Shown: piece after piece, positions 4,581-53,475 of the stretch
Numbering within the stretch: position 1 is the stretch's first letter
Layout of the letters: every line of letters begins with the position of its first letter
Source of the DNA: Alphaproteobacteria bacterium
Lineage (GTDB): Bacteria; Pseudomonadota; Alphaproteobacteria; Rs-D84
DNA length: 64,000 nucleotides
Reading direction: 5' to 3'
NCBI GenBank assembly: GCA_017472065.1
Contig: JAFURB010000003.1
Location: 16,524 to 80,523 of the forward strand
Notes under the pieces: generated by a model
Told to the model about the DNA's origin: nothing
The model's database searches: none
Seen by the model: the letters and a program-made list of their open reading frames with translations, nothing else
Position numbers and translations under genes: made by a program

Positions 4581-5885
4581 ATGAAAACTTTAACAATAGA
4601 AAACGTGGCGCTAAATCAAATACGCGCCTATGCGAAAAACGCAAAAAATCATCCAGAAAGCCAAATCCAGCAGATAGCAGCATCTATTCAGCAGTTTGGG
4701 TTCAATAATCCGATACTAGTGGACGAAAATCTGGAAATCATTGCCGGGCACGGTCGTATGGCTGCCGCCCAATTATTGGGGCTGGATACCGTGCCAGTTA
4801 TCCGTCTGGCGCATTTATCAGATGCACAAAAGCGTGCCTATCGCCTGGCTGATAACAAAATCGCCGAAAACGGTGGCTGGAATGCAGATTTGTTGCGGTT
4901 GGAAATATCCGAACTGGAACAAATCTGTGGCGATATGGACGTATCTATTACGGGATTTTCAGATATCGAACTGGATACCTTGACTATGGATAATAGGACG
5001 ACAGCGGATTCCAAGGCAAATAATGTGCCGTACATCCCAGAAAACGAAATTGTAACACGCCCCGGTGATGTGTGGTGTATTGGCGACCATAGAATTATTT
5101 GCGGAAACAGTCTGGATGCGACGACATTTGAAACGCTGCTTGGCACGCGTCAGGCAGATATGGTTCTGCAAGATCCGCCATACAATGTCAAAATATCAGG
5201 GCATGTATGCGGTTCGGGCAATATCCGGCATAAAGAGTTTAAAATGGCATCTGGCGAGATGAGTACAGATGAGTTCACGCAGTTTTTGCACAAGAACTTT
5301 GAATTGTGTGCGAAACATTCTCGCCCTGGGGCATTACAGTACAATTTCATGGATTGGCGCCACATGGGCGAAATATTGTCCGCAGGAACCGATGCGTTTT
5401 CAGGCCTGATAAACATGTGTGTTTGGTGCAAGACTTCGGGCGGTATGGGCAGTCTGTATCGTAGTCAACACGAACTCTGCTTTATTTTCAAAAACGGCAA
5501 GGAATCACACACCAATAATGTTCAGCTTGGTAAAAATGGGCGTTATCGCACAAATGTTTGGCAGTATGCGGGCGTAAATGCCTTCGGCAGGCACAGGTCA
5601 GACATTCAAATGCATCCGACTGTAAAGCCGGTTGAAATGCTGAAAGATGCGATACTCGACGTCACACGGCGTGGCGATGTTGTGTTGGATACATTTCTTG
5701 GATCGGGCAGTACATTGATTGCCGCCCACCAATCCAAACGCATTTGTTATGGCATTGAACTGGAACCACTGTACGTGGATACTGCTATCCGCAGGTTTTT
5801 AGAAATGTTTCATATCGATGCTGTACATCAAGCATCTGGCAAAACGTATTCGGAATTATTAACCGCAAAGCGAGAGGTGTCGTAA
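4581..5885 (+). CDS. ParB-like nuclease domain fused to a DNA methyltransferase (N6-adenine/N4-cytosine, beta class); phage-type
   Basis: N-terminal ParB/Srx-like region (ILVDENLEIIAGHGRMAAAQLLG). MTase motif IV VLQDPPYN precedes motif I VVLDTFLGSGST (order IV then I gives beta class). RBS aaggag lies 7 nt upstream of the ATG at 4581. Confidence 0.75.
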   Translation: MKTLTIENVALNQIRAYAKNAKNHPESQIQQIAASIQQFGFNNPILVDENLEIIAGHGRMAAAQLLGLDTVPVIRLAHLSDAQKRAYRLADNKIAENGGWNADLLRLEISELEQICGDMDVSITGFSDIELDTLTMDNRTTADSKANNVPYIPENEIVTRPGDVWCIGDHRIICGNSLDATTFETLLGTRQADMVLQDPPYNVKISGHVCGSGNIRHKEFKMASGEMSTDEFTQFLHKNFELCAKHSRPGALQYNFMDWRHMGEILSAGTDAFSGLINMCVWCKTSGGMGSLYRSQHELCFIFKNGKESHTNNVQLGKNGRYRTNVWQYAGVNAFGRHRSDIQMHPTVKPVEMLKDAILDVTRRGDVVLDTFLGSGSTLIAAHQSKRICYGIELEPLYVDTAIRRFLEMFHIDAVHQASGKTYSELLTAKREVS

Positions 5886-6253
5886 TGGCAGATTATGAAT
5901 TGGGCTATATGAAACCGCCTAAATCGGGACAGTTCAAACCAGGTCAATCTGGTAACCCAAAGGGGCGACCAAGTGGCAGCAAAAATATTTATAAATTACT
6001 GGATGACATTGTAAACGAAAAGATTCAAATGACCAAAAATGGCAAGCCAGTAAAAATAAGCAAAAAGCAAGCCATGCTATTACAGGCGACAAACAAGGCT
6101 GTGCAAGGCGATTTAAAAGCGTTGCAGACTCTGCTGCCTGTGATGGCAGAAGCAGACAATAAAAATGAAGAACTTGCCAAAGCAGCCACAGCTATTCGGC
6201 AGGACGACATAGAAATATTAAAACAGTATTTAAAGGAAAACAACAATGAATAA
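5885..6253 (+). CDS. Putative terminase small subunit-like protein (DUF5681-like)
   Basis: N-terminal KPPKSGQFKPGQSGNPKGRPSGSKN motif. Position is immediately upstream of, and overlapping, the large terminase. Start codon overlaps the stop of the preceding gene (ATGA). Confidence 0.4.
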   Translation: MADYELGYMKPPKSGQFKPGQSGNPKGRPSGSKNIYKLLDDIVNEKIQMTKNGKPVKISKKQAMLLQATNKAVQGDLKALQTLLPVMAEADNKNEELAKAATAIRQDDIEILKQYLKENNNE

Positions 6254-7697
6254 AGAAATTATGAATGCAATATTACGTACAGATTTTAAATCTTTTGTGG
6301 TAAAGGTGTTTAACGAGGTATCTCCTGGTTCACATTACCTGAACAATTGGCATATTGATGTCATTTGTGACGCAATTATGGATATGTACGAAGGGCGACA
6401 TAATCGCCAGATTATAAATATGCCACCGCGGTATATGAAAAGTATGATATGTTCAATCGCATTGCCGGCGTGGATACTGGGACATAACCCAAAGGCTCAA
6501 ATACTTTGTGTCAGTTATAATGATGAACTGGCAGAAAAATTCGCGATCAGTTGTCGTGACGTTATGCAATCGGATTGGTATCGTGAACTTTTCCCAATGA
6601 CACGTTTGCATCAATCCAGGCAGGCTGTAAACGATTTTGCAACCACACGTGGTGGCGGACGCATTGCCGCATCTGTTGGCGGAACATTGACCGGTCGTGG
6701 CGCAGATTGGATAATCATAGACGATCCACAGAAATCTGTGGATGCAACATCGGAAACCCAGCGTGCCAAATTGAATGAATGGTATGGCTCTACGTTATAT
6801 TCGCGTCTTAATGACAAGGCAAATGGCAAAATTATACTGGTAATGCAACGTCTGCATCAGGATGATTTAACTGGACATTTGTTGGAGTTGGGCGAACAGT
6901 TCAATATCATTAAGCTGCCCATTATTGCAACCGAGGATGAAAACTGGATGGTCAAGAATCGCATTTCTGGTAAAGTGCGAGTAATTACGCGTGCCAAGGG
7001 CGAATTGCTGCACACAGAACGTGAAAATATGGATGTTGTGACAAGCATAAAGAACTCTATGGGTGAAAATGCATTTGTTGCCCAATATCAACAAGATCCA
7101 TGTCCACCAGAAGGCGGAATTATTAAAGAGTCATGGCTACACTACTATACCAAGGCACAGGGTGAATCCATAGATCCAGCTAAGTATTGCAGAATTTTTC
7201 TTAGCTGGGATACAGCCAATAAAACTGGGCCAAATAATGCGTATTCCGCTTGCTGTGTTATATTGATGACACGCGAATCCAATATGTATAAATACTACCT
7301 GCTAGATGTTGTTCGTGGCAAATGGGAAATGCCCGACCTTATCAGACAAGTGGAAAAAGTGTATTGCTATTGGAAGTATGAAAAGGGTGGACAACATTTG
7401 GTAAGATTGTTAATAGAAGATAAGGCGAGTGGAACGCAATTGATACAAATGCTAATGGCACAAAGAGACCGTCATGGATACAATTTTGCAATTGAACCAA
7501 TAAAGCCCGATACAGATAAGACATCAAGATTAATGGGGGCTAGTGCTTATATAGAAAACGGTACATTACGTTTTCCACAAGAGGCGCCTTGGTTGTCAGA
7601 TTTCAAGAAAGAACTATTAGGATTCCCTAATGGTAAATACAAAGACCAAGTTGATGCCTTAACACAATGTATAAATTATGTGGTACAACATTCATGA
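6246..7697 (+). CDS. Phage terminase large subunit (483 aa)
   Basis: Terminase_6/GTA-type TerL features: ...NNWHIDVICDAI..., ATPase Walker B IIIDDPQK, C-terminal nuclease region ...FLSWDTANK... DQVDALTQ. Confidence 0.8.
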   Translation: MNKEIMNAILRTDFKSFVVKVFNEVSPGSHYLNNWHIDVICDAIMDMYEGRHNRQIINMPPRYMKSMICSIALPAWILGHNPKAQILCVSYNDELAEKFAISCRDVMQSDWYRELFPMTRLHQSRQAVNDFATTRGGGRIAASVGGTLTGRGADWIIIDDPQKSVDATSETQRAKLNEWYGSTLYSRLNDKANGKIILVMQRLHQDDLTGHLLELGEQFNIIKLPIIATEDENWMVKNRISGKVRVITRAKGELLHTERENMDVVTSIKNSMGENAFVAQYQQDPCPPEGGIIKESWLHYYTKAQGESIDPAKYCRIFLSWDTANKTGPNNAYSACCVILMTRESNMYKYYLLDVVRGKWEMPDLIRQVEKVYCYWKYEKGGQHLVRLLIEDKASGTQLIQMLMAQRDRHGYNFAIEPIKPDTDKTSRLMGASAYIENGTLRFPQEAPWLSDFKKELLGFPNGKYKDQVDALTQCINYVVQHS

Positions 7698-9424: not shown

Positions 9425-10168
9425 ATGCTATTTAATGTTACGCTATTTTCGGAAGATAATATAACAATCAGTGTCTTTGATGTAGAGGAACTTTCCGATG
9501 AACTAAAGTGCTTTATTGATGACAATATTCATCAAATATGCCTAGGAGAACCGGGTGATTTGTCGTGCGTAAAATTAGATTTAAGAGATAGAATTAATGG
9601 ATGGAATGATGATAACAAAAAAATAGGTTCTATTGCGGAATTTTTTGTGCATTTATACTTAAAACATGAAGGTTATCAGCAAGAATGCTTGTTTTTTAAT
9701 CTCGAAGAAAGGTCATTAAAAAAAGGCTTTGATGGCGTGTATTCTATTGGAGAGCAGCTTTGGTTTGTGGAAAGCAAGTCTGGTTTTATAAGCACGTCTG
9801 GAGTAACACATGCATCTAAGATACGAGAAGCTTATAATGATGTAAAAACAAAAATAACTACTGGTGTCAGTAATAATCCATGGTTAAACGCTTATAATCA
9901 TGCAAGGGTTGTAAAAACTAAAAAAAAGTTACGTGATACTTTAAAACAAATATCTGATGATTTTATTAATCATAGATATCAGACGATTGATGATAAAAAC
10001 ATAATACCGTGCGCAACTATATTCTTAAATGGTATATGGCAGCCACAAGATCATGCAAATATTATAGAGATGGTAAAAAGTATATCAACATTACATGGGA
10101 AAAATATTCATGCCATTTGTATAACACAAAATAGTTATGAAGTCTTTATGCGGTATTTAGAGGATTAA
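9425..10168 (+). CDS. HamA-like protein (putative PD-(D/E)xK nuclease, DUF1837-like); first gene of a Hachiman-like pair
   Basis: 247 aa. ...GFDGVYSIGEQLWFVESKSG contains a D...E-x-K arrangement. Its stop overlaps the start of the downstream helicase (TAAAATGAG). The family assignment rests on size, motif and gene context only. Confidence 0.4.
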   Translation: MLFNVTLFSEDNITISVFDVEELSDELKCFIDDNIHQICLGEPGDLSCVKLDLRDRINGWNDDNKKIGSIAEFFVHLYLKHEGYQQECLFFNLEERSLKKGFDGVYSIGEQLWFVESKSGFISTSGVTHASKIREAYNDVKTKITTGVSNNPWLNAYNHARVVKTKKKLRDTLKQISDDFINHRYQTIDDKNIIPCATIFLNGIWQPQDHANIIEMVKSISTLHGKNIHAICITQNSYEVFMRYLED

Positions 10169-10169
10169 A

Positions 10170-12602
10170 ATGAGTGATTCTAGAAAAATATCGAATCTGA
10201 AAAGTATTAAGCCTGTTCGGGCCGTTCTAAAAAAATTATTTTTATCAGATGATACTATTGACGAAGAAGAAAAGCAATTTTTATTAACCGTAGCGATTGT
10301 ATTGCTTAATCAATATCAAGCGGATACATCACACAAAACAGCTTTTGAATTGGCGTATTTTATTGTTTTAAAATATTCAATTATGTTTCAAGATTGGCAA
10401 CCTTTGTATGATTTTGCACTAAATTATGGCTTTTATCCAATCTCTAATGCGATTATTAATAATAAAGGGATGCTTCCTAATATCACAACAGAAACTTTGA
10501 CCGTGGCAACAGAGTCTCAGTTTAAACATAATGATATTGTAGAAACGAAAGAACAAAATAGATCCAGAAGGGGGGTGTTAGCTACAGATGAAGCGTATGT
10601 AAGCTATGTTGCTCCAACATCTTTCGGAAAAAGTCAGGTTATTATTGAACATATAAGGCAAAATATAGCTTCTTATAACAAGTTCGCTATAGTTGTCCCC
10701 ACAAAATCATTGTTAATGCAAACATATAAAAACATAAAATCAGGTTTTACAAATGTTAGGGTATTAATACATGATGAAATGTATAGTGAAACCGATGAGA
10801 GATTTATTGCTGTATTTACTCAAGAAAGAGCATTGAGATTATTAGAAAAACACCAAAATATACATTTTGATGTTTTGTATATAGATGAAGCACATAAATT
10901 ATTAGAAAATTCAGATAGGAGTGTCTTGCTAACACGATTGGTAAGATTGGCAATGTATCGTAACAATCGCATAAAAATAATATATTTGTCCCCATTAATT
11001 CAAAATATTAATAATATTTCAATATCTGGTCAAAGTATAGAACCGCATAAAATATCAATTAACATAAAGATTCCTACGATTTATGAATATACAAATTCTG
11101 GAGATGTATTAATTTATAATCGATTTTTTGATGAATTTTATGCGAATGCTCATTTAGATGTTGATTATTTGCGGTATATAGAAACAAAATCAACAGATAA
11201 AAATTTTATATATTTGTACACTCCAATAAAAATAGAACGTTTTTCTAAAAGACTGTTTGAGTCTATAACGGAGATTCCTGTAAACGATGATGTTGTGCAG
11301 GTAATAGATAATCTAAATAAATATGTACATGAAGATTTTTATGTGTCTAAGTATTTGCGCAAGGGTATTATTTATATCCATGGAAAAATACCAGATGATA
11401 TAAAAGATTATTTGGAGTTCAAATTCAATACTATTAAAGAAATAAGATACTTGGTTGCAAACAATGTGATATTAGAAGGTGTAAATTTACCGTTTGATTC
11501 TTTGTTTATTATTGATTCACGGGGGCTAGATAAAAATTCATTAATAAATTTGATTGGCCGGGTGAATCGATTAAATATGGTATTTACAAGATCTATTGAC
11601 ACTCTATCAAAATTATTACCAGCAATACATTTTGTTGAAAATAATGAATTTTGTACTTGTAGTATGGCAAATAAAATCAAGCTGTTACAGACATCGGATT
11701 TTGTTGACGAGGTTGAAAACCCGCTATTGGATAGTTTTAATTTAGAAGCCGAAAAGAATGTGGAAAAACGTCATAAATGTGAAGAAACTATTAGAAATGA
11801 AAATTTGGTATTTTTAGAAACAGCAAGCGATGTACAAGTTCTAAAGCAAAATATGTTAAAACTTAGCATGAATGTGATATACAGCATAACAGACGAAGTG
11901 TGTGCCGACATTTTATCAAGAATTAACGGTTATAAAGAACAATATGGGATGCTATCCGATACAAAAAATGTATTTAACTTATTGTATCAGATATTCATAG
12001 AGCGGCTAGAGGAGACCATAAAGGATGAAGAATTTAAACGTTTGATAAATAATGCAAGTAGAGAGTATTATTATAAATTAATAGTAAAGCATAGAAAGAA
12101 GTCGTTAAAAGAGCAGATCTCTTTGACTGCCAGATATTTATATGGTCTTAAAAGAAATAGTGCCAATCCTCGTCTGTTCATAGGTTCTTCATACGGAGAG
12201 TGTGATGCTTTTGGTAATCCTTTTACAAATAAACATTTTTATATAGATGTTGGGGCAAAAAATTATTCTGAAATTGTAAATTTGTCTATAGTGAAGATAA
12301 AATTAGAGGAGGATTTTGTGAGTTTTAAACTGAATAAGTTCTTTCAGTTAATGCTGGATTATGAGCTTATATCAAGAGAGCTTTATAATGATTTAGTATA
12401 TGGCACTAATAACCCTTTGATTCTTATGTTGAGTAAACAAGGGCTAAGTCTGAATATAATAAACAAACTCATCAAAGATGAGCAATTGGGTAATTTATCA
12501 ATCGATAATTTTGGGAATTTATCATATAATGAACAATTTGCAGCATACAAAGAAACCTCTGATGACTTTTTTAAATTTGAATTAGATAAATTCTTACCAT
12601 AA
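10170..12602 (+). CDS. SF2 DExH-type helicase (810 aa), HamB-like; second gene of a Hachiman-like pair
   Basis: Walker A VAPTSFGKSQV, motif II LYIDEAHKL, motif VI LIGRVNRLN. The helicase core sits in the N-terminal half with a long C-terminal region, as in HamB. Confidence 0.6.
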   Translation: MSDSRKISNLKSIKPVRAVLKKLFLSDDTIDEEEKQFLLTVAIVLLNQYQADTSHKTAFELAYFIVLKYSIMFQDWQPLYDFALNYGFYPISNAIINNKGMLPNITTETLTVATESQFKHNDIVETKEQNRSRRGVLATDEAYVSYVAPTSFGKSQVIIEHIRQNIASYNKFAIVVPTKSLLMQTYKNIKSGFTNVRVLIHDEMYSETDERFIAVFTQERALRLLEKHQNIHFDVLYIDEAHKLLENSDRSVLLTRLVRLAMYRNNRIKIIYLSPLIQNINNISISGQSIEPHKISINIKIPTIYEYTNSGDVLIYNRFFDEFYANAHLDVDYLRYIETKSTDKNFIYLYTPIKIERFSKRLFESITEIPVNDDVVQVIDNLNKYVHEDFYVSKYLRKGIIYIHGKIPDDIKDYLEFKFNTIKEIRYLVANNVILEGVNLPFDSLFIIDSRGLDKNSLINLIGRVNRLNMVFTRSIDTLSKLLPAIHFVENNEFCTCSMANKIKLLQTSDFVDEVENPLLDSFNLEAEKNVEKRHKCEETIRNENLVFLETASDVQVLKQNMLKLSMNVIYSITDEVCADILSRINGYKEQYGMLSDTKNVFNLLYQIFIERLEETIKDEEFKRLINNASREYYYKLIVKHRKKSLKEQISLTARYLYGLKRNSANPRLFIGSSYGECDAFGNPFTNKHFYIDVGAKNYSEIVNLSIVKIKLEEDFVSFKLNKFFQLMLDYELISRELYNDLVYGTNNPLILMLSKQGLSLNIINKLIKDEQLGNLSIDNFGNLSYNEQFAAYKETSDDFFKFELDKFLP

Positions 12603-12946: not shown

Positions 12947-13933
12947 ATGAAAAAAATCTACGACGATCCTAATATCGTTATATATTCAAAAACCGAAACA
13001 GATCCCGTTTTTCAAGAAATAAAAACATCTGATGGCAAATGTTTTAATACATCAAAACCGACTATTTATGATTTGGGAATTGGCCTTGGGGCTGCGGAAT
13101 TGATGTTTATAAACCCAAATACGGGCGAATGGCTTCATGGTGGTGATGGTGAAATTATACCAATAAGCACAAAAGCGAACAAAGTAGTGTTTAATGAAAA
13201 GGTATGGTCGTTAAGCGGGTTGGCAACACATTTGCAGAGCAAATATCCAGAATCTAAATGCCCAGAAGCTCAGGTATATGACTTTTTTGCATATGGAAGC
13301 AAAGCCGATACATTGGCAAAGAAAGAACGAGAATTTTTGGAAAAATACTATAAAATTTCCATACCAAAGGGGCGTCTTGAATTATTGGCAGAACAAAGGT
13401 ATTTGGCGGAACAAAAAAAATACGACGCAAATGATTTACCCATATTTGACGTACATAAAGATGTGTATAAAATCGTAGACTGGCAAAACGATGATTTGAC
13501 ATCTGTAAAGGGATTTAAATGGTCTATTGATGGCACAAAATTTGCTGGCGAAACACGAAAATTTAAAGAGATGTTTAAGCAAATCGTTTCTTGTTTGTAT
13601 AATCATATGCCACGGGTTTTGGATATTGAAATGATTCGCATATTGTCGGAATCTGATGCGTTATTTAATCCCACAATTAAAAAAATAATAGGTGTTTCTG
13701 GTGAAGTGCCTGTGGTAAATGGCAATATTGATGGCCTAGAGTTTTCTAATATTCCAAATAATCACAGACATATTGATACATATACGGACAGTATGTGGAT
13801 AGAAGTAGTTCCGGAGTGGCTTTACATTTGGGGGTTGTATTCCAATAATGATTTAAAAAAGAAGTTACAAATATTATTAAAATTATATGGAATAGAACCA
13901 AATATGTTAAAAATATCAATCCAAGAACACTAA
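12947..13933 (+). CDS. Hypothetical protein (328 aa); candidate island cargo
   Basis: Clean ORF with RBS aaggag, ending at a hairpin terminator. No recognisable domain. Confidence 0.5.
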   Translation: MKKIYDDPNIVIYSKTETDPVFQEIKTSDGKCFNTSKPTIYDLGIGLGAAELMFINPNTGEWLHGGDGEIIPISTKANKVVFNEKVWSLSGLATHLQSKYPESKCPEAQVYDFFAYGSKADTLAKKEREFLEKYYKISIPKGRLELLAEQRYLAEQKKYDANDLPIFDVHKDVYKIVDWQNDDLTSVKGFKWSIDGTKFAGETRKFKEMFKQIVSCLYNHMPRVLDIEMIRILSESDALFNPTIKKIIGVSGEVPVVNGNIDGLEFSNIPNNHRHIDTYTDSMWIEVVPEWLYIWGLYSNNDLKKKLQILLKLYGIEPNMLKISIQEH

Positions 13934-13989: not shown

Positions 13990-14329
13990 CTACGTCTTGC
14001 GCCACGCCGTCGCAAACGCTTTCAATATCAGATGGTTGTTTCCTGTAATGCTTAGCGTGCCATTGTGTCCGCCCCTAAATCTGGTGTTGGCATATCGGCG
14101 CAGCACAACCGGTCGCACAATCGTCACATTATCGCTATTTACCATATATTCCATTGGACTGTTATTATGATTGATATGGTATGTAGATAAAAATGAATTG
14201 TACAACCGTGGGTTGATGTTGATGCAGAATATCAGTTGTTCTTGCGAATAAACTGCCTGTTCAATCATAACGCGAACCAATTCTCGTCTTTGCAGGTATG
14301 ACAGATCTTCCCACTCAATCCGTTTTAAT
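13990..14329 (-). pseudogene. Truncated internal fragment of a serine recombinase gene (copy 2 of the duplicated segment, 14002-14329)
   Basis: The 96-aa ORF and the sequence upstream of it are roughly 85-90% identical to residues ~335-440 of the recombinase at 2375-3967. The catalytic N-domain and the C-terminal end are both missing. Confidence 0.7.
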
Positions 14330-14357: not shown

Positions 14358-14465
14358 GAAAAAATAAAGCAGACACCGAAGTGTCTGCTTGAAATGGTGT
14401 CCACATTCACAAGAATGCTTCCTTATTAACGACTAGACATCTAATTCCAACTTGATTTTATTCGT
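14358..14465 (-). ncRNA. tracrRNA (trans-activating CRISPR RNA)
   Basis: Plus-strand 14433-14450 CTAGACATCTAATTCCAA is the exact reverse complement of the repeat core TTGGAATTAGATGTCTAG. The minus-strand RNA reads ...AAUCAAGUUGGAAUUAGAUGUCUAGUCGUUAAUAAGGAAGCAUUC...GCAGACACUUCGGUGUCUGCUUUAUUUUUU: anti-repeat, then UCGUUAAUAAGG (nexus-like; compare SpCas9 tracr AAGUUAAAAUAAGG), then an intrinsic terminator (hairpin 14369-14388 plus U run). The 5' end is not defined. Confidence 0.7.
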
Positions 14466-14573
14466 TAAGTCACCACTGGCATGATTATATCACTTGTATA
14501 AATAATGTCAAATAGTTTGATTTTATGCCCAATATTGTATACCATAATTACAAATTATTACAAAGGTGCGGAC

Positions 14574-17500
14574 ATGAAGTACAAACTTGGTTTAGATTTA
14601 GGCAGCACATCACTTGGTTGGGCTGTGGTTGAATTGGGGGATAATGATGAAATTTTGCGTTTGGTTGATATGGGTGTCCGCATCTTTCCAGATGGTCAGG
14701 AGCATTCGCCAACTGGCGTAAAGAGTTTGGCCAGTGTTCGTTCGGAAAAGAAACAGCAAAGACTTCAGACAGACCGTCGCAAGATGCGAAGAAAACAACT
14801 GTTTAGCAAATTGGTTGAAACAGGATTGTTACCGACAGATAAAGAAATGCTAAAAGAATTATTAAATCCTGGGATTGGAAATGGGAATCGAACCAATCCA
14901 TATGAATTGCGAAACAAGGCTGTTGAAGAACAAGTATCGTTGTATGAGTTAGGGCGTATTTTATGGCATTTATCCAAACATCGTGGATTTTCGGGTAAAC
15001 GAGATCAGGATATTGATATACAAAGTACAAAACAACAGGTCGAGCCATCAGAAACCGATAACGCCAAAGAAGCAAAAAATGTTAATAAAAGAATTGAACG
15101 GTTGCGCCATGAAATCGCAAGTGCAGGGGTTAAGACTTTGGGGCAATACTTACATAAGAAATATGAAGAAAACAAGTCCGTTCGTTTTACTGCGCTTGAG
15201 GCCAGTACAGGTCAATCATCTGGATTCCCCAGCAGGAAACTTTATCAAGAAGAATTTGAAACTATATGGAAAAAACAAGAAAAGTATTATCCAAATATAT
15301 TAAACGAGCAGTTAAAAAAAGAGTTACGTGATGATATAATGTATTTTCAGCGACCATTGGCACAGCAACCAGTCGGAAAGTGTAAATTTGAGAAGTCTGA
15401 AGATAGAATCGCAAAGTGTTATCCATTATATCAGGAATATCGAATTTTGCAGGATATTAATGATTTAGAATTGGATGGCACACCGTTACCTGATGAGTAT
15501 CGTATGGCAATCTATCATATGCTTATGAATCCTAATGCTGTTGATGAAATGATTGACGGAAATGGGCGATTGTCGTTTGATAAAATTCGCGAGCACTTGA
15601 ATATTATCGGCAGATTTAATTTGGAACATATTGGTAATCGTGGATTGTTGTGTAACAAGACAAACAAAGTTATGTCTTCTGATGCAGTGTTTGGTGACAA
15701 ATGGTTTGACTTTGATGCAGAAACCCAGGAAAAAATAATTTACGAGATTACGGCTTATCACAAGACAAAAAATCAAAGTAAAGAAGCTCTTCAAGAGATG
15801 GGGATAAAAGATGATGCATTGATTGAACGCTTGCTAAAAAAACACTCTTTGTTGACCAAAGGCTATTCTGAATTGTCTGCGATGGCAATAAAAAGGGTGT
15901 TGCCAGCCATGAAAAATGGAAAAAAATGGCACGAAGCGGCAGCGGAGAAATACGGAAAACACACGGTTGTCAGACCGTATTATACATTTGGGTATAATCC
16001 ACCCAAGCAATTACCAGACTACAGAAAATTATTTCACGAATCTCTTACCAATGGAAAAATTGGCAATGTGACAGTGCATATTGGCTTAAATCAATTGCGT
16101 GCAGTTATTAATGCCTTGATAGAAAGATACGGTCATCCATATAGCATAGCCATTGAAATGGCGCGTGAATTAAAAATGGGTAAAAAGGCATTGGATATAT
16201 ACAGGCGAAAACAATGGCAAAACCAAAAGTTTAATATAGATGCCCGCAGAAAAATTAACGATGTCTTGGGACGTTCGTATGATAGTGCTGTGTCTTCTGG
16301 TGAAATGGAAAGGTATAAAGTATGGTATAACCTAAATCCGAAAAACGAAAATCAAAGGTATGACTGGTATGATTCTTCTGATACCCCATTGATAAGTTTA
16401 CGTGATGCCTTGTCATCGGAATATGAAATTGAACACATTATTCCACGGTCAATTGGTGGTGATGATACATGGGCAAATAAAATTTTGACCAGAAAGGATC
16501 ATAACTTAGCCAAAGGTAACATGTTGCCATATCAATATTTGTCAGAAAGCCAGCTGGCACGTGCAAAGCGCTGGGCCAAAGATTCAGATGATGTCAGAAA
16601 GACAGAATCTCAGCGCAAGGAAGAAGAAAAAGCAATTAGAGCAGGTAAACCGGTTCCTTTTGTGTTTAATTCGTTTGCGTGGCGTTTTGAATCTAATGCT
16701 GGTTCGCACATAAACAAAGATTTCAAATCACGCGATTTGAATGATACCCGCTATTTGTGCAAGGTGGCACGTGATTATTTATCATATATTTGTGTTGGTT
16801 ATTCTCATGCAGAAAAACAGCGAACCCCTTATGTTATTGCCAGTAATGGTACGATGACCAGTTTATTCAAAGATATATGGGAATTAAATGACTGTTTGCC
16901 TTATGATTATGATAAGTGGTCAATTCAGGATTGGCAACGTGATATTATGAAACAAAGAATCTTTGAACGTCTGTTCAAAGATGATCCGGAATTTGGTGTG
17001 TATGATAAAGAAAAAACAGCAAGCAAGGCAAAACAAGATGCCGAAAAAAAGCAAATAGAAGAGGAATTAAAAAATACGCCCGATTCAGAGTTTCTGAAAA
17101 TATCTAGCAGAAAGAAAGACCGAACCAACCATTATCATCATGCTCTGGATGCATTTGTGATTGCATGTTTGGACAACAAAATGGTGCAAGAAATCAATGC
17201 GCGCGCAAACGAATTTGCGGACATGCGCGACAAGTGGAACAGGCAAAATGATGCAGACAAAGAAAAAAGCTTGCAACAGATTCGCAAAGAGCAAATTCAG
17301 AAAGAATACACTAAGCCATTTGGTGGGTTTGATAAAAATCTTTTGGCAAAAACTTTGGCTGATTTGGTGGTGGCAGAAAAACAGCAACCGGATAAATTGC
17401 AGCAGTATTTGTCAGGAAAAAGCAAAGGTGTTGCTTCTTTTACACAAGATACAGCATTTGGGATTGCTGATGAAGAATATTTTGATGATGGCTATATAAT

Positions 17501-18134
17501 GTTACGTGTGAACGGCAAAACGTCCAAGGCCGATTTGAAAACATTGGTGCCCGTGTTTAACAAACAGCATCCCGAATATAAAAGATTAAAACAGCAATAT
17601 ATTGATGCGTATGCCCAGTGGCGCACGGACAAAAAAGATCGCCAGAAAATAAGAAACTTGATGGCTTGTATATCACGTGACAAGGTATTCAAGTGGTTGG
17701 CCAGTGGTGGTAATTATGCGACTGAAATTTATACAAATGGCAAAAGCGCTGTTTGGTCATCGGATATTATGTCGAATTGGTGGGCTTTGCAACGCGGCGG
17801 TCGTTTCTGGTGGCGCGATGATTATCCAAATGGAAAATGCATAATGAAATTACGCATCGGCAGCAAGATTCGTGTAATGCATGAAAACGCAACACTTTTG
17901 AAAGAACAAAGAAATATTGGGAAATGGGTGATAAGTCAGATAGAACACGGTCGTGATTTGTTGTTTCGGGTCAAAAAGTTAACAGGTACAAACATTTACT
18001 TGACGCCGGTGCATGTCGCACTTGAAAAACCCGATGATACAAAAACATGGCAGGCCTCGGCACGTTCACTACAAAAAGTATCTGCACAGATTGTTGAAAT
18101 ATCTGTTCTGGGCGATGTTGTTGAACTAAAATAA
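14574..18134 (+). CDS. cas9: Cas9 endonuclease (1186 aa), type II-C-like
   Basis: RuvC-I MKYKLGLDLGSTSLGWAV; Arg-rich bridge helix RRKMRRKQLF; HNH YEIEHIIPRSIGGDDTWANKILTRKDHNLAKGN; RuvC-III NHYHHALDAFVIA. The track ORF starts 23 codons earlier; the ATG at 14574 follows RBS AAAGG and matches the conserved Cas9 N-terminus. There is no csn2 or cas4 in the locus. Confidence 0.9.
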   Translation: MKYKLGLDLGSTSLGWAVVELGDNDEILRLVDMGVRIFPDGQEHSPTGVKSLASVRSEKKQQRLQTDRRKMRRKQLFSKLVETGLLPTDKEMLKELLNPGIGNGNRTNPYELRNKAVEEQVSLYELGRILWHLSKHRGFSGKRDQDIDIQSTKQQVEPSETDNAKEAKNVNKRIERLRHEIASAGVKTLGQYLHKKYEENKSVRFTALEASTGQSSGFPSRKLYQEEFETIWKKQEKYYPNILNEQLKKELRDDIMYFQRPLAQQPVGKCKFEKSEDRIAKCYPLYQEYRILQDINDLELDGTPLPDEYRMAIYHMLMNPNAVDEMIDGNGRLSFDKIREHLNIIGRFNLEHIGNRGLLCNKTNKVMSSDAVFGDKWFDFDAETQEKIIYEITAYHKTKNQSKEALQEMGIKDDALIERLLKKHSLLTKGYSELSAMAIKRVLPAMKNGKKWHEAAAEKYGKHTVVRPYYTFGYNPPKQLPDYRKLFHESLTNGKIGNVTVHIGLNQLRAVINALIERYGHPYSIAIEMARELKMGKKALDIYRRKQWQNQKFNIDARRKINDVLGRSYDSAVSSGEMERYKVWYNLNPKNENQRYDWYDSSDTPLISLRDALSSEYEIEHIIPRSIGGDDTWANKILTRKDHNLAKGNMLPYQYLSESQLARAKRWAKDSDDVRKTESQRKEEEKAIRAGKPVPFVFNSFAWRFESNAGSHINKDFKSRDLNDTRYLCKVARDYLSYICVGYSHAEKQRTPYVIASNGTMTSLFKDIWELNDCLPYDYDKWSIQDWQRDIMKQRIFERLFKDDPEFGVYDKEKTASKAKQDAEKKQIEEELKNTPDSEFLKISSRKKDRTNHYHHALDAFVIACLDNKMVQEINARANEFADMRDKWNRQNDADKEKSLQQIRKEQIQKEYTKPFGGFDKNLLAKTLADLVVAEKQQPDKLQQYLSGKSKGVASFTQDTAFGIADEEYFDDGYIMLRVNGKTSKADLKTLVPVFNKQHPEYKRLKQQYIDAYAQWRTDKKDRQKIRNLMACISRDKVFKWLASGGNYATEIYTNGKSAVWSSDIMSNWWALQRGGRFWWRDDYPNGKCIMKLRIGSKIRVMHENATLLKEQRNIGKWVISQIEHGRDLLFRVKKLTGTNIYLTPVHVALEKPDDTKTWQASARSLQKVSAQIVEISVLGDVVELK

Positions 18135-18464
18135 TTGTAATTGATTGGGGCGTTGTGCCAGTGCGGTTGGCATCTCGGCCTTGTCCAGGTGGATTATGTC
18201 CCCAAATTGGGTGTCTGTAAAGAACAGAATATTCACGTCCCCCGTACACGGGTTGTTGCGTTTTATTGCCCGGATATATTTTTGTGAATTTTCGCGTGTA
18301 CCTGTAAATCGCATATATACAGAGTATTGCGCCATCGAAAATCCCATGTCTTGCAGGAAATTACGAAACTGGCTTGCTGCGCGCCGTTCCTGTTTCGTTT
18401 CGGTCGGTAAATCGAACATAACCATCATCCACATGTACTTTAATCCATCAGTTCTGTATGACAT
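18126..18464 (-). CDS. cas2: Cas2
   Basis: MSYRTDGLKYMWMMVMFDLPTETKQERRAASQFRNFLQDMGF matches the type II Cas2 N-terminus (compare MSYRYMRMILMFDMPTDT). The 3' end overlaps the cas9 stop region by 9 bp, convergently. Confidence 0.85.
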   Translation of the reverse strand: MSYRTDGLKYMWMMVMFDLPTETKQERRAASQFRNFLQDMGFSMAQYSVYMRFTGTRENSQKYIRAIKRNNPCTGDVNILFFTDTQFGDIIHLDKAEMPTALAQRPNQLQLF

Positions 18465-19383
18465 TTTCAAAATCCAATTTATTTTTCTTTTCACTCAGGG
18501 AATTTACAAAATTCCAAACATCGCGTTGCATAATATTTATCAATGGTGAAAATCCAGCGCGTGTTTTAATCTCGGATTCTAAAATCATCGCCATTTGACG
18601 TTTGTCATCTGGTGTTAATTCGCGCGTTTGGTCGTCTGAACCTTGAAAAATCTGATATACAATTGCATCTACGATTGGGCGATATGGTTCCATTAAATCA
18701 TCAACCAGGCACATTGGATTTAGTTGGTTGTGGTGCTGTATTCCATATGACGGGTTTAGTCCTGCTGCAACCACCAAACGTGCCATTGCGCCCCTAATAA
18801 TTGCATATCCATAGTTTAAGAAAGCATTAATTCCACCCATCGTATGTATGCGTAAGAATCCGCCACCGAACAGGGCGGGAAAATACATGCGGGCGGCGAT
18901 TCCTTCTATATTACTGGTGTCACCAGATTGTACAACTGTTGGCAGATTTTTGATTTTGTTATCCAATCCGAAATAGTCCAATACGCGTGATTGGTTTCGA
19001 ATTTTTTCCTGAACAATCGTTTTCCATAATTGTTTTTGTAGTGGCTTGGATGAATTGACCTGTGTTTGCTGTACGGTCATTTGTCGTGTTTGTCCGATCA
19101 ATGGCGTCATTATTCCCACCGGATTATAGTTGTCGCCAATGATGATTAAAGGGATTCCATTGTCGCATAATTGGGTCATAAGATTTTGTGTAAATAAAAT
19201 GGCACGGCCTGTTGCCATTACGGCACAAATAGAATCCATTGGAACCTCGGCCAATGTGATGCCGCGTTCTTTGATGCACAAGAAACCACGGCGTGCCGTC
19301 AATTCGCGATTGTTATTAGAAATTTCAATAATGTTTGTTTGCATATCTGTTATATAAGCACAAAATATTGATTTGTCAACCAT
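18448..19383 (-). CDS. cas1: Cas1 integrase
   Basis: Type II Cas1 hallmarks: ...SGDTSNIEGIAARMYFPALFG..., ...NYGYAIIRGAMARLVVAAGLNPSYGIQHH..., ...DLMEPYRPIVD... The start may instead be the internal Met MQTNII at about 19344. Confidence 0.9.
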   Translation of the reverse strand: MVDKSIFCAYITDMQTNIIEISNNNRELTARRGFLCIKERGITLAEVPMDSICAVMATGRAILFTQNLMTQLCDNGIPLIIIGDNYNPVGIMTPLIGQTRQMTVQQTQVNSSKPLQKQLWKTIVQEKIRNQSRVLDYFGLDNKIKNLPTVVQSGDTSNIEGIAARMYFPALFGGGFLRIHTMGGINAFLNYGYAIIRGAMARLVVAAGLNPSYGIQHHNQLNPMCLVDDLMEPYRPIVDAIVYQIFQGSDDQTRELTPDDKRQMAMILESEIKTRAGFSPLINIMQRDVWNFVNSLSEKKNKLDFENVIQN

Positions 19384-19472
19384 AAGTAAGTTTCTTATAA
19401 AGAAAAAATAGCAAAACGAATCGATTTTTTGAATAAATTTGATTGTTTTTTGATTTTAGATATAACATAAAA

Positions 19473-19497
19473 GCCCCAGGAATCTGGGGACTTTTGT
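19473..19497. terminator. Hairpin/terminator between the CRISPR array and the cas1 start
   Basis: CCCCAG-GAAT-CTGGGG, with a T-rich tract on the plus strand (CTTTTGTG) and also on the minus strand (CTTTTATG). Confidence 0.45.
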
Positions 19498-19504
19498 GCT
19501 ATGG

Positions 19505-21786
19505 ATTATATCAGATTGGAATTAGATGTCTAGCCGCAACGTAGTTAAAACAAAGGAGTAAAAAATGAAAATTATATCAGATTGGAATTAGATGTCTAGC
19601 CGCAACTCGGCACGTGTGATGTATTCGTCCAATTCGATTATATCAGATTGGAATTAGATGTCTAGCCGCAACGTACAAGGCGTTTATATGGCTTAAAAAT
19701 GGATTATATCAGATTGGAATTAGATGTCTAGCCGCAACGTATATATGCACATTCGGCGGTGCTACTGGATTATATCAGATTGGAATTAGATGTCTAGCCG
19801 CAACGAATGCTTTCCCCGCCGTCGGGTTTCCATGATTATATCAGATTGGAATTAGATGTCTAGCCGCAACTGGAAGATTGGGAGCGCCACGGTTATAAAT
19901 ATTATATCAGATTGGAATTAGATGTCTAGCCGCAACAGTTGGAAATCCAACGTGAAGAAATGGAAGTATTATATCAGATTGGAATTAGATGTCTAGCCGC
20001 AACTTCAGTGGCACAGCCGCGCGCACGCCATGAATTATATCAGATTGGAATTAGATGTCTAGCCGCAACCTGCTTTTTAGTGTGTTGTAATCCGCGGAAA
20101 TTATATCAGATTGGAATTAGATGTCTAGCCGCAACTTTTTGAATAGATTGTAATAACAGATATTTATTATATCAGATTGGAATTAGATGTCTAGCCGCAA
20201 CAGTACCACCAAAGAGAAATCGTCCGGAAACATTATATCAGATTGGAATTAGATGTCTAGCCGCAACTTTGCAACAGTATGTCACAAGGCGCGGTTTATT
20301 ATATCAGATTGGAATTAGATGTCTAGCCGCAACTAGGGCGCGCCAGTTATTCAAATGAACCTTATTATATCAGATTGGAATTAGATGTCTAGCCGCAACG
20401 CCACGATACAGACCCCCGCGCCGGTGTGAATTATATCAGATTGGAATTAGATGTCTAGCCGCAACCGACACACACATTATTATATATAACACTGGATTAT
20501 ATCAGATTGGAATTAGATGTCTAGCCGCAACATCGCACGGCTTGCCTTTTCACTAAACACAATTATATCAGATTGGAATTAGATGTCTAGCCGCAACGGG
20601 TGACATTGTTGCACACCGTAAGCAATTATTATATCAGATTGGAATTAGATGTCTAGCCGCAACCAATTTACCGGCAATTTCAAATGCAATTTGATTATAT
20701 CAGATTGGAATTAGATGTCTAGCCGCAACTCCTTATGCTTGTGGCGGTGTTGTTGGTTTATTATATCAGATTGGAATTAGATGTCTAGCCGCAACATATA
20801 ATTTGTCCCCGTTATGATTTTCTTTATTATATCAGATTGGAATTAGATGTCTAGCCGCAACGGATTATACCAAAAGTCATGTCCATGTTCAATTATATCA
20901 GATTGGAATTAGATGTCTAGCCGCAACATTCTGGTGAAAAGTTCATTGTTTATACCCATTATATCAGATTGGAATTAGATGTCTAGCCGCAACGTTTCCC
21001 GCCACCAGATGAATAAAAATTTTATTATATCAGATTGGAATTAGATGTCTAGCCGCAACGACCTCAATCCCCACGTCCGTGGTATAACCATTATATCAGA
21101 TTGGAATTAGATGTCTAGCCGCAACATTTGCGTACGAACACGATTTGAACGGCAAATTATATCAGATTGGAATTAGATGTCTAGCCGCAACTGATAAATT
21201 GCATTCCAAACGGCGGTAAATATTATATCAGATTGGAATTAGATGTCTAGCCGCAACTAGCAATCTGGGGAGATAAAAACATTATTGATTATATCAGATT
21301 GGAATTAGATGTCTAGCCGCAACGATATAAAAACTTAGGAGCACTTGATTTCAATTATATCAGATTGGAATTAGATGTCTAGCCGCAACATACTGATATA
21401 TTAAAGTCGATTCTTAACTATTATATCAGATTGGAATTAGATGTCTAGCCGCAACACTGAGTTAGGTCTTATTACTTTAGATGAAAATTATATCAGATTG
21501 GAATTAGATGTCTAGCCGCAACAGGAACCGACTACTGTTATTCACTTGACATATTATATCAGATTGGAATTAGATGTCTAGCCGCAACATATCTTCAAAT
21601 GCCATCGCATCCTTAACCATTATATCAGATTGGAATTAGATGTCTAGCCGCAACGTTACAAATGATGATTGATGATGCTCATTAATTATATCAGATTGGA
21701 ATTAGATGTCTAGCCGCAACCTCTGGCATTATCTGCACCATCTACACACAATTATATCAGATTGGAATTAGATGTCTAGCCGCAAC
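19505..21786 (-). CRISPR. CRISPR array: 35 direct repeats of 36 bp and 34 spacers of 29-31 bp; crRNA inferred to be a minus-strand transcript
   Basis: Plus-strand repeat ATTATATCAGATTGGAATTAGATGTCTAGCCGCAAC, period ~66 bp, first repeat 19505-19540, last 21751-21786. In crRNA orientation the repeat is GTTGCGGCTAGACATCTAATTCCAATCTGATATAAT. Strand is inferred from the tracrRNA anti-repeat orientation. Confidence 0.95.
21751..21759 (-). promoter_or_regulatory. Representative intra-repeat extended -10 element (TGATATAAT) at the 3' end of each repeat in crRNA orientation
   Basis: On the minus strand each repeat ends ...CTGATATAAT, which is TGnTATAAT. This would start transcription a few nt into the adjacent spacer, as described for Neisseria and Campylobacter type II-C arrays. 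Confidence 0.5.
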
Positions 21787-21981
21787 CGCGATGGTGGTGG
21801 TCATGTGCATATCAAAACGGGTCATCCCCGTTCGTGGTTACGGGGATAGTAATTATTGGTTGTAATCTTATTATGCTTGTATTCATAATTATGTTCAAGT
21901 GTCTTTTATAAGATGATTTTCATATGATGGGTATCTTTATACCTCTTTTCTTTGTGTGAAATATATGATATAATACCAAAC

Positions 21982-53443: not shown

Positions 53444-53475
53444 AAAAACACCCGCCCAATGGGCGGGATTATTTT
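53444..53475. terminator. Bidirectional terminator
   Basis: A7-CACCCGCCC-AAT-GGGCGGG followed by ATTATTTT. Confidence 0.6.

Follow-up and report, generated by a model that had tools for sequence, protein, structure and literature searches.

Gene content and subtype of the locus

The window, a stretch of 64,000 nucleotides from an alphaproteobacterial contig, carries at 14360-21786 a tracrRNA gene, cas9, cas2, cas1 and a CRISPR array (Table 1).

Table 1. Features of the CRISPR-Cas locus, with positions in the window.
Feature	Position	Strand	Description
tracrRNA gene	14360-14477	-	~118 nt; start predicted from the -10 box, end from the terminator
Terminator hairpin	14367-14390	-	UUCG loop, then U-tract; intrinsic
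P1, 3' strand	14393-14400	-	(A)CACCAUU; between stem-loop 1 and terminator
Stem-loop 1, nexus position	14403-14418	-	GCAUUC-UUGU-GAAUGU; from fold
Anti-repeat	14429-14456	-	23 contiguous pairs + 4 with crRNA repeat; includes 18-mer 14433-14450
P1, 5' strand	14470-14477	-	tracrRNA 5' end AGUGGUGA; pairs with 14393-14400
Putative tracrRNA promoter	14484-14511	-	TTGACA, 16 nt, TG-n-TATAAT; 12/12 consensus matches + extended -10 TG
cas9	14574-18134	+	1186 aa, ~138 kDa; RuvC and HNH catalytic residues intact
cas2	18126-18464 (or to 18494)	-	112 aa from ATG; 122 aa from GTG at 18494
cas1	18448-19344 (or to 19383)	-	298 aa as in relatives; 311 aa from first ATG at 19383
cas1-array spacer, leader position	19384-19504		bidirectional terminator-like hairpin 19474-19489
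Putative repeat-embedded promoter (one example; all 35 repeats)	19505-19532	-	TAGACA, 16 nt, TG-n-TATAAT
CRISPR array	19505-21786	- (crRNA sense, GTTGCGGCTAGACATCTAATTCCAATCTGATATAAT)	35 repeats, 34 spacers

Cas9 matched the model TIGR01865 with 489.5 bits (cutoff 100) as well as the Pfam models RuvC_III and HNH_4, and its residues D8, E528, H621, N644, H856 and D859 are invariant among 62 Cas9 homologues. In the AlphaFold model of the protein (pLDDT 83.9), the helix of residues 52-82 is the candidate bridge helix; the RuvC, HNH and bridge-helix architecture that had been proposed from the DNA letters, without database searches (the sequence-only reading), is thus borne out. The same reading had assigned the protein to a "1.2 kDa-class" and regarded it as compact; however, its mass is 138 kDa, and with 1186 residues it lies at the large end of II-C and exceeds the Nme, Geo and Cje Cas9 proteins. 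The best structural matches of the model are all II-C proteins (TM-score 0.65-0.67, normalised to the target), with Nme1Cas9 of Neisseria meningitidis (PDB 6jdv, 6kc8) and ThermoCas9 at the top and Nme1Cas9 best by overall fold. Among solved structures, the best sequence matches are GeoCas9 and ThermoCas9 of the Geobacillus II-C systems (PDB 9ar4, 8uza, 8jtj; E 1e-37), which share the RuvC-I, RuvC-II, HNH and RuvC-III motifs; the catalytic motifs align to those of ThermoCas9. By sequence and fold together, the closest proteins are Nme1, Thermo, Geo and Hpa Cas9, all II-C, a grouping based on top matches and on the locus type of the neighbours; the nearest Cas9 homologues sit within cas9-cas1-cas2 loci. 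The match to GeoCas9 and ThermoCas9 spans residues 1-772 only, and their host is unrelated. Identity to Nme1Cas9 is only 18-20%, the alignment ends around residue 772, and the protein described here is ~100 residues longer, with an insertion at ~773-848.

Cas1 matched TIGR03639 (cas1_NMENI) with 238 bits (cutoff 120) and PADLOC Cas1_II (E 3e-94), and Cas2 matched TIGR01573 with 68.8 bits and PADLOC Cas2_II (E 5.7e-40), in line with the type II hallmarks ascribed to both proteins before. No Csn2 or Cas4 match in Pfam, NCBIfam or PADLOC was obtained for any flanking open reading frame between 7.7 and 25.3 kb, which agrees with the absence of both genes stated in the sequence-only reading. Subtypes II-A, marked by csn2, and II-B, marked by cas4 and a Csx12-like Cas9, were rejected since both genes are absent. 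Subtype II-D was rejected as well: the Cas9d model NF049971 scored 93 bits, below its cutoff of 375, and cas4 is lacking. The assignment to subtype II-C, which had been made earlier together with the call of a tracrRNA, is supported by the cas9/cas1/cas2 content, by the match of Cas1 to its type II model, by the solved structures nearest in sequence and fold, and by a tracrRNA with promoter, anti-repeat duplex and terminator. It is an ordinary II-C locus that adds one more member to a known type of system, and it shares with the Nme1Cas9 system a gene set limited to cas9, cas1 and cas2, 36-bp repeats and 30-bp spacers.

The cas genes do not form a co-directional operon: cas1 and cas2 are encoded by the minus strand and converge on cas9, and the stop codons of cas2 and cas9 overlap tail-to-tail by 9 nt (TTAAAATAA), an inversion relative to the Nme1 locus. 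A co-directional cas9-cas1-cas2 operon is typical of II-C systems, but it does not define them. Current classification relies on which genes are present and on the phylogeny of Cas9 (PMC12669027), and the convergent cas1-cas2 pair is therefore compatible with II-C membership. The inverted layout was also found in 11 related loci. For cas1-cas2, no promoter reaching 9/12 consensus matches was detected.

The array and its predicted promoters

Recounting of the array returned the 35 repeats of 36 bp and the 34 spacers reported previously. All repeats are identical and all spacers differ, 32 of them being 30 bp and two 31 bp long. The repeat is complementary to the minus-strand tracrRNA, and crRNAs would therefore be transcribed from the minus strand. 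This places the array antisense to cas9, as in all 60-odd II-C loci compared and likewise in N. meningitidis and Campylobacter jejuni (PMC3737331). Degenerate terminal repeats are present at the far array end in five related loci (L016, L020, L022, L043 and L065), which points to the cas1-proximal end as the spacer entry site, where Cas1 and Cas2 would add new spacers.

Each of the 35 repeats appears to end with a near-consensus promoter, consisting of TAGACA, 16 nt and TGATATAAT. On the crRNA strand, every repeat scanned showed 11/12 consensus matches plus the extended -10 TG, giving a predicted promoter of the Neisseria type within each repeat that is aimed into the downstream spacer; here as for the other features, promoters, terminators and start sites were assigned as consensus matches only. 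Promoters within II-C repeats have a precedent in Neisseria (PMC5965381), and the N. meningitidis II-C system combines an antisense array with promoters in the repeat 3' ends (PMC5965381, PMC3737331); compared with the Nme1 repeat, the repeat described here has a -35-like TAGACA besides the extended -10. Transcription would begin ~7 nt inside the next spacer and yield ~24-nt guides, and the crRNA 5' ends would be primary, as in N. meningitidis and C. jejuni.

Alternatively, a single long pre-crRNA could originate from the far array end and be processed by tracrRNA and RNase III only, similar to II-A systems, in which case the repeat promoters would be incidental. Weak promoter-like sites (9/12) are indeed located past the distal end on the minus strand (21870-21898), and the repeat promoters are themselves calls by consensus. 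However, a site with 11/12 matches and the extended -10 TG recurs in 35/35 repeats, and the repeats of nearly all related II-C loci compared end in a TATAAT- or TAAAAT-like sequence, which makes transcription from the far end alone unlikely.

The tracrRNA and its helices

The tracrRNA would be transcribed divergently from cas9, starting at a sigma-70 consensus promoter and ending at an intrinsic terminator. In 10 related loci, the anti-repeat is preceded by the same promoter, and a covariance model placed the same RNA upstream of cas9 in 21 loci, with 91.5% of the cells paired compared with <=50% when the partners were slid. Among these 21 loci, 10/10 pairs of the terminator show compensatory changes; the strong intrinsic terminator noticed before was recovered as a minus-strand hairpin at 14390-14367 with a T-run after it.

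The anti-repeat 18-mer CTAGACATCTAATTCCAA occurs as a single copy outside the array, on the strand opposite to the 35 array copies, and was matched in 0/100 shuffles. The sequence-only reading was thus right about an exact 18-mer at 14433-14450, but the duplex comprises ~27 bp rather than 18. When repeat and anti-repeat were cofolded, as that reading had recommended, the duplex reached -41.1 kcal/mol compared with -15.3 +/- 3.0 kcal/mol for shuffled repeats. The value for the duplex lies near the median of -39.4 kcal/mol published for II-C systems (PMC6546382). In L003, L016 and L020, the anti-repeat changes jointly with the repeat. The UCGUUAA segment, formerly taken for the nexus, is the lower stem of this duplex; the nexus position is occupied by stem-loop 1, which varies or is missing in relatives according to a comparison of the tails across loci. 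In the proposed mechanism, the crRNA repeat would pair with the anti-repeat over ~27 bp, RNase III may trim the duplex, and Cas9, with its RuvC and HNH sites intact, would cut matching PAM-adjacent DNA.

Two further helices involve the 5' part of the tracrRNA. P2, a predicted helix of UUAACGA with UCGUUAA, would close the anti-repeat into a loop, and P1 connects the 5' end of the transcript with its 3' part, a closing helix that sets this tracrRNA apart from that of Nme1. P1 is seen in the single-sequence fold and in the RNAalifold prediction, and 6/8 of its pairs show double changes among 21 sequences. In a test of cognate versus non-cognate duplexes, the observed value was reached in 2/10000 permutations. 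Several relatives have no helix other than P1 at the nexus position. The II-C loci L005-L017 of gut Alphaproteobacteria share P1, the GUYAAUAAG motif, the repeat family (ATTATA...GCAAC) and the position of the tracrRNA upstream of cas9, but retain the usual co-directional cas9-cas1-cas2 order. The covarying helix complicates the direct single-guide design that had been envisaged, since fusion of repeat and anti-repeat via a tetraloop would delete P1, which is formed by the tracrRNA 5' end; it thus provides a concrete warning for such designs and a testable structural feature.

The 5' part could also be read as a natural single guide, which would steer Cas9 to repress a promoter in the manner of tracr-L, the long form of the Streptococcus pyogenes tracrRNA, which reportedly autoregulates cas9. 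P2 mimics how the 5' end of a crRNA repeat pairs with the lower stem, the guide position upstream of P2 comprises 9 nt, and the tracrRNA is divergent from cas9. On the other hand, the would-be guide nucleotides co-vary with a segment of the same transcript, which argues for RNA-RNA pairing, a guide could draw on no more than 5-10 nt, and no match was identified in the cas9 promoter region. A guide function of this segment is therefore very improbable, and its pairing in P1 is the preferred reading.

Origin of cas9, activity and host

DNA similarity to seven related loci (L022, L065, L036, L040, L043, L016 and L020) is confined to 14360-14695 and 18127-19600, on either side of most of cas9. Relative to L022, Cas1 is 95%, Cas2 91% and the tracrRNA 83% identical, whereas Cas9 is only 31% identical. 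Relatives that share the backbone thus combine an identical repeat, 95% identity in Cas1 and 83% in the tracrRNA with Cas9 proteins of ~30% identity, which argues that cas9 was exchanged in place. Conversely, L002 and L003 encode Cas9 proteins 69-75% identical to that of the window, and their tracrRNAs show 74% and 67% identity, respectively. The Cas9 and Cas1 trees, obtained from pairwise identities by simple neighbour joining, are incongruent. The tracrRNA gene, cas2-cas1 and the repeat would accordingly represent a conserved backbone, in which two deep Cas9 lineages have probably exchanged the intervening cas9 frame. Makarova et al. (2025; PMC12669027, Extended Data Fig. 9) describe in-place exchange of cas9 in the II-C systems of Flavobacteriales, which belong to a different phylum. 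In the locus described here, the exchanged segment has the conserved tracrRNA gene on one side and the inverted cas2 on the other, and the repeat remains identical.

The low Cas9 identity might instead mean that cas9 has diverged very rapidly in place, without recombination. The first 60 (55-70%) and the last 46 (35-46%) residues of Cas9 exceed the remainder in similarity, and both ends adjoin the conserved flanks. Similarity at the termini could also reflect local constraint, by the RuvC-I motif and by the overlap with cas2. Divergence in place is, however, quite unlikely: Cas1 is closest to that of L022 (95%), whereas Cas9 is closest to those of L002 and L003 (69-75%), and the L022 Cas9 is 43-45% identical to the Cas9 proteins of L011-L017 but only 31% to that of the window, with L011-L017 having co-directional cas genes and a Cas1 of 55% identity. 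The Flavobacteriales precedent points in the same direction.

An exchange of cas9 would constitute a clean natural case in which a whole frame was replaced between fixed flanks while repeat and tracrRNA were retained. Guide RNAs are usually expected to be exchangeable between closely related Cas9 proteins only, an expectation to which the replacement of cas9 on a fixed guide backbone would run counter. Between the cas9-swapped relatives, the tracrRNA is 83% identical and every helix is kept. It may tentatively be proposed that a single guide-RNA backbone serves two Cas9 lineages of ~30% identity as a cross-compatible scaffold, with both recognising the P1/P2 fold and probably using different PAMs. 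The exchanged proteins offer pairs for testing shared guide use with differing PAMs.

Taken together, the region very probably represents an intact type II-C CRISPR-Cas9 immunity locus of mosaic build, with an exchanged cas9, in an uncultured gut alphaproteobacterium. A decaying relic without immune function would fit the lack of protospacers in cultured phage genomes, plasmids and IMG/VR, the last searched with eight 22-nt spacer cores; the lack of a clear cas1-cas2 promoter and the terminator hairpin between array and cas1 also count against an intact system. Decay is nonetheless extremely improbable: the three cas frames are intact with conserved catalytic residues, the 35 repeats match exactly, no spacer recurs among the 34, the tracrRNA promoter and terminator are intact, and the absence of protospacers is to be expected where the phages of a host are poorly sampled. 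Furthermore, the spacer sets of the relatives are entirely different, which suggests ongoing acquisition.

The closest relatives are metagenome-assembled genomes of Candidatus Enterousia and Rs-D84-like bacteria, and the host bacteria seem to be Alphaproteobacteria of the gut whose genomes are reduced (PMC12306168). If the genome of the host is reduced, the 7.4-kb CRISPR locus, which adjoins a Hachiman-like system, would represent a sizeable investment in defence.

The II-C locus, its Cas9 and neighbouring genes

The type II-C CRISPR-Cas9 locus is real, and its subtype assignment is supported; the inverted adaptation module, the exchange of cas9 and the closed fold of the tracrRNA described below go beyond routine annotation and remain computational findings. 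The long cas9 ORF opens at 14505, whereas homology supports a start at 14574 (MKYKLGLDLG...). Its product reaches 489.5 bits on the equivalog model TIGR01865 and also matches Pfam RuvC_III and HNH_4, in agreement with the Cas9 call of the sequence-only reading, whose Cas1 and Cas2 calls are likewise borne out by profile matches (see table). The same reading had reported the absence of csn2 and cas4 and proposed subtype II-C; indeed, none of the ORFs from 7.7 to 25.3 kb encodes a Csn2- or Cas4-like protein, II-C Cas9s are the best matches, and the score on the Cas9d model falls well short of the cutoff.

Features of the locus and of the region upstream of it (window positions)
Feature	Position	Strand	Details
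Hachiman-like pair	9425-12602	+	247-aa ORF, then 810-aa DEAD/ResIII helicase
ORF between Hachiman and tracrRNA terminator	12947-13933	+	328 aa
ORF between Hachiman and tracrRNA terminator	13990-14280	-	96 aa
tracrRNA intrinsic terminator	14390-14367	-	
tracrRNA promoter	14511-14484	-	perfect TTGACA, 16 nt, TG-n-TATAAT
cas9	14574-18134	+	1186 aa, 138 kDa, pI 9.3
cas2	18126-18464, or to GTG 18494	-	TIGR01573 68.8 bits; PADLOC Cas2_II
cas1	18448-19344, or to first ATG 19383	-	TIGR03639 cas1_NMENI 238 bits
Bidirectional terminator-like hairpin	19474-19489		between array and cas1

The closest solved sequences are ThermoCas9 and GeoCas9, followed by Nme1Cas9 (E 1e-37 to 1e-34), with alignments limited to residues 1-772. 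An AlphaFold model based on an alignment of 62 homologues (mean pLDDT 83.9) gave whole-length fold matches to Nme1Cas9 (6jdv, 6kc8; target-normalised TM-score 0.65-0.67), ThermoCas9, GeoCas9 and HpaCas9, all of which are II-C enzymes. Residues D8, E528, H621, N644, H856 and D859 do not vary among the 62 aligned sequences and line up with the catalytic motifs of ThermoCas9, and on this basis an active double nuclease is expected. Unlike ThermoCas9, the protein carries a mostly helical insertion (residues ~773-848, ~16890-17117) before the RuvC-III HHALDA motif, which is particular to clade A, the deep Cas9 lineage to which it belongs, is absent from the other lineage, clade B, and is partly deleted in the related locus L002. 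Only ~10 proteins among 5.8 billion share more than 33% identity over the full length; this Cas9 clade is small and uncharacterised.

A Hachiman-like defence pair is located ~2 kb upstream of the locus. Its helicase matches PADLOC HamB models (E 3.5e-47), while the partner has no Pfam match and only a weak match to a PADLOC nuclease region. The two ORFs between this pair and the tracrRNA terminator were considered as cas accessory genes and rejected: they have no match in Pfam, NCBIfam, PADLOC or PHROGs and are missing from the related locus L001 (98% identical), whose similarity to the window begins at 14360. Another ORF (6246-7697, plus strand) encodes a terminase large-subunit RNaseH-like domain (E 6e-12), which suggests a prophage remnant adjoining the defence genes. 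The ORF at 53474-63997 (minus strand, 3507 aa) contains at least eight Listeria-Bacteroides repeat (Flg_new) domains and probably encodes a giant surface protein, which would be striking for a host genome under 1 Mbp. Ruminant, horse, rabbit and human guts are the sources of the genome matches, metagenome-assembled genomes that carry the label Candidatus Enterousia or Alphaproteobacteria bacterium, and these best matches point to the host lineage; in the literature (PMC12306168), genome sizes below 1 Mbp are given for Enterousia and the order Rs-D84.

Guide RNAs and array

The positions of promoter and terminator imply a minus-strand tracrRNA of ~118 nt, which would extend from 14477 to ~14360. 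The 18-mer at 14433-14450, previously read as the anti-repeat, is an exact match and the only place outside the array where the repeat core occurs, lies on the strand opposite to the array copies and has no counterpart in 100 shuffles (0/100). Cofolding confirmed the predicted pairing of tracrRNA and repeat, which involves 23 contiguous pairs (G4-U26 of the repeat, G-U pairs counted) and four further pairs beyond one mismatch; the duplex energy of -41.1 kcal/mol, compared to -15.3 +/- 3.0 with shuffled repeats, lies near the II-C median reported in the literature, -39.4 (PMC6546382). The extent of this duplex means that UCGUUAAUAAGG, which had been taken for a nexus-like element, opens with the lower stem of the repeat duplex. 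Searched against Rfam, neither the tracrRNA nor the repeat region matched a family.

Since complementarity to a minus-strand tracrRNA requires it, crRNAs would be minus-strand transcripts, in which the repeat reads GUUGCGGCUAGACAUCUAAUUCCAAUCUGAUAUAAU. In this sense, every repeat contains TAGACA, 16 nt and TGATATAAT, corresponding to 11 of 12 consensus positions plus an extended -10 element. The last base of the repeat is the end of the -10 element, so transcription would start ~7 nt inside each following spacer, thereby producing guides of ~24 nt. Promoters within repeats are the crRNA route of Neisseria and Campylobacter II-C systems (PMC5965381); the repeats analysed here resemble these in having a putative promoter aimed into the spacer, and the locus probably uses the same route.

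The array (19505-21786) consists of 35 copies of ATTATATCAGATTGGAATTAGATGTCTAGCCGCAAC (plus strand) without a single mismatch and 34 unique spacers (30 bp, n=32; 31 bp, n=2); this recount reproduces the 35 repeats of 36 bp and 34 spacers reported before. The suggestion that the spacers might lead to protospacers and a PAM was not fruitful: blastn of the whole array against phages (50,697 records) and 72,556 plasmids gave only chance-level matches (E 0.2-0.7), all to the first, low-information spacer, an exact IMG/VR search with eight 22-nt PAM-proximal spacer cores returned 0 matches, and no match with up to four mismatches was found in the 80 loci retrieved at that point or in the remainder of the window. 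Furthermore, no spacer is common to any two compared arrays, and a literature search retrieved no paper containing the repeat. The spacer adjoining cas1 (19541-19570, GTAGTTAAAACAAAGGAGTAAAAAATGAAA) resembles a ribosome-binding site with a start codon; its matches, to unrelated phages and plasmids, are at chance level (E 0.2-0.7).

Convergent layout and exchange of cas9

In all related II-C loci fetched for comparison (L-numbers), the array is antisense to cas9 and the tracrRNA lies upstream of cas9 in divergent orientation, both of which are known for II-C (PMC3737331). In the window, cas2-cas1 converge on cas9 from the opposite strand, a layout found in 12 of 80 fetched loci, among them L001-L004, L016, L020, L022, L036, L040, L043 and L065. 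The Cas1 proteins of these loci belong to one tight clade, which takes in every inverted locus. The stop codons of cas9 and cas2 overlap tail to tail at 18126-18134 in a common 9-nt string, TTAAAATAA, and such overlaps also occur in L002-L004, L016, L020, L022, L036 and L043; in L003 and L036 they comprise 15 nt, in the window and the other six relatives 9 nt, with TTAAAATAA or a very similar string. This overlap, present in both Cas9 clades, means that a terminator would not fit between cas9 and cas2. Read-through from array promoters into cas1-cas2 is a doubtful reason for the inversion, as a bidirectional terminator-like hairpin intervenes. Five of the convergent loci have a degenerate terminal repeat at the end of the array far from the cas genes, which suggests that new spacers enter at the cas1 side.

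A blastn comparison of the window with L022, L065, L036, L040, L043, L016 and L020 revealed only two segments of DNA similarity: 14360-14695, which contains the tracrRNA, the two promoters and ~40 codons at the 5' end of cas9, and 18127-19600, which begins at the cas2 stop, spans cas1 and reaches into the array; the body of cas9 did not align to any of these seven loci. The proteins of the window and L022 share 31% (Cas9), 95% (Cas1) and 91% (Cas2) identity, and the repeats are identical. The Cas9 tree contains two deep clades: clade A comprises the window and L001-L005, with L006 and L007 as sister, and clade B the seven compared loci, with L011-L017 as sister. The identity of the tracrRNA tracks Cas1 rather than Cas9 (L022 83%, L002 74%, L003 67%), and three types of tracrRNA tail, defined by sequence or presence of stem-loop 1, the hairpin at the nexus position, cut across both Cas9 clades.

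Because the conserved parts flank cas9 on both sides, one exchange of the cas9 reading frame is a more parsimonious explanation than two separate replacements of the flanks. Chimeric assemblies are unlikely, as each arrangement recurs in several contigs obtained independently from different animals. Flavobacteriales II-C loci have been reported to shuffle cas9 in place relative to cas1 (PMC12669027), so the process itself is already known; what stands out is that tracrRNA and repeat were kept across a Cas9 gap of ~30% identity. A metagenome scan with the window's 29-nt anti-repeat plus lower stem found exact copies in six human-gut contigs (L081-L086), and it yielded no new Cas9 type, all contigs with cas9 being L043-type (clade B).

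L040 and L065 are both contigs of the metagenome-assembled genome RGIG2010, which apparently has two II-C loci; their repeats differ by one base and their Cas9s are ~66% identical, and the two loci could cross-talk. L006 possesses, besides its II-C array downstream of cas9, a second array upstream of cas9 (4682-5691) with the unrelated 36-bp repeat ATTAAAGCAGCCCCGAATTTAGAAGGGGACTAAAAC.

Fold of the free tracrRNA

The free tracrRNA folds into four elements: the helices P1 and P2, stem-loop 1 and the terminator hairpin. P1 is formed by nucleotides 1-8, AGUGGUGA, and (A)CACCAUU directly before the terminator, and P2 by UUAACGA and UCGUUAA, thereby closing the anti-repeat into a loop. P1 and the terminator were independently recovered by RNAalifold. 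P1 is kept across loci despite sequence changes (GGUGA/UCACC, GGUGU/ACACC, GUGGA/UCCAC, GAUGAUA/UAUCAUC, UGAAAUC/GAUUUCA and AUUGUGAAUU/AAUUCACAAU). In an alignment-free test, cognate 5' and 3' segments paired with -7.5 kcal/mol compared to -4.5 kcal/mol for non-cognate ones, and just 2 of 10000 permutations reached the observed value. As P1 and P2 were out of register in a MAFFT alignment, a covariance-model alignment of 21 tracrRNAs was used instead, in which 91.5% of cells are paired, compared to at most 50% with partners slid by 1-3 columns, and two-sided changes are found at six of eight P1 pairs and all ten terminator pairs; being fitted to the model, this alignment leans towards the model structure. 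By inspection, a local hairpin between AAUAAG and the terminator is lacking in several relatives, leaving P1 as the sole helix at the nexus position. Possible roles of P1 and P2 are stabilisation of the free RNA, a contribution to the scaffold bound by Cas9 or maintenance of a closed state that is opened by the crRNA. A standard single-guide fusion would delete the 5' strands of both helices.
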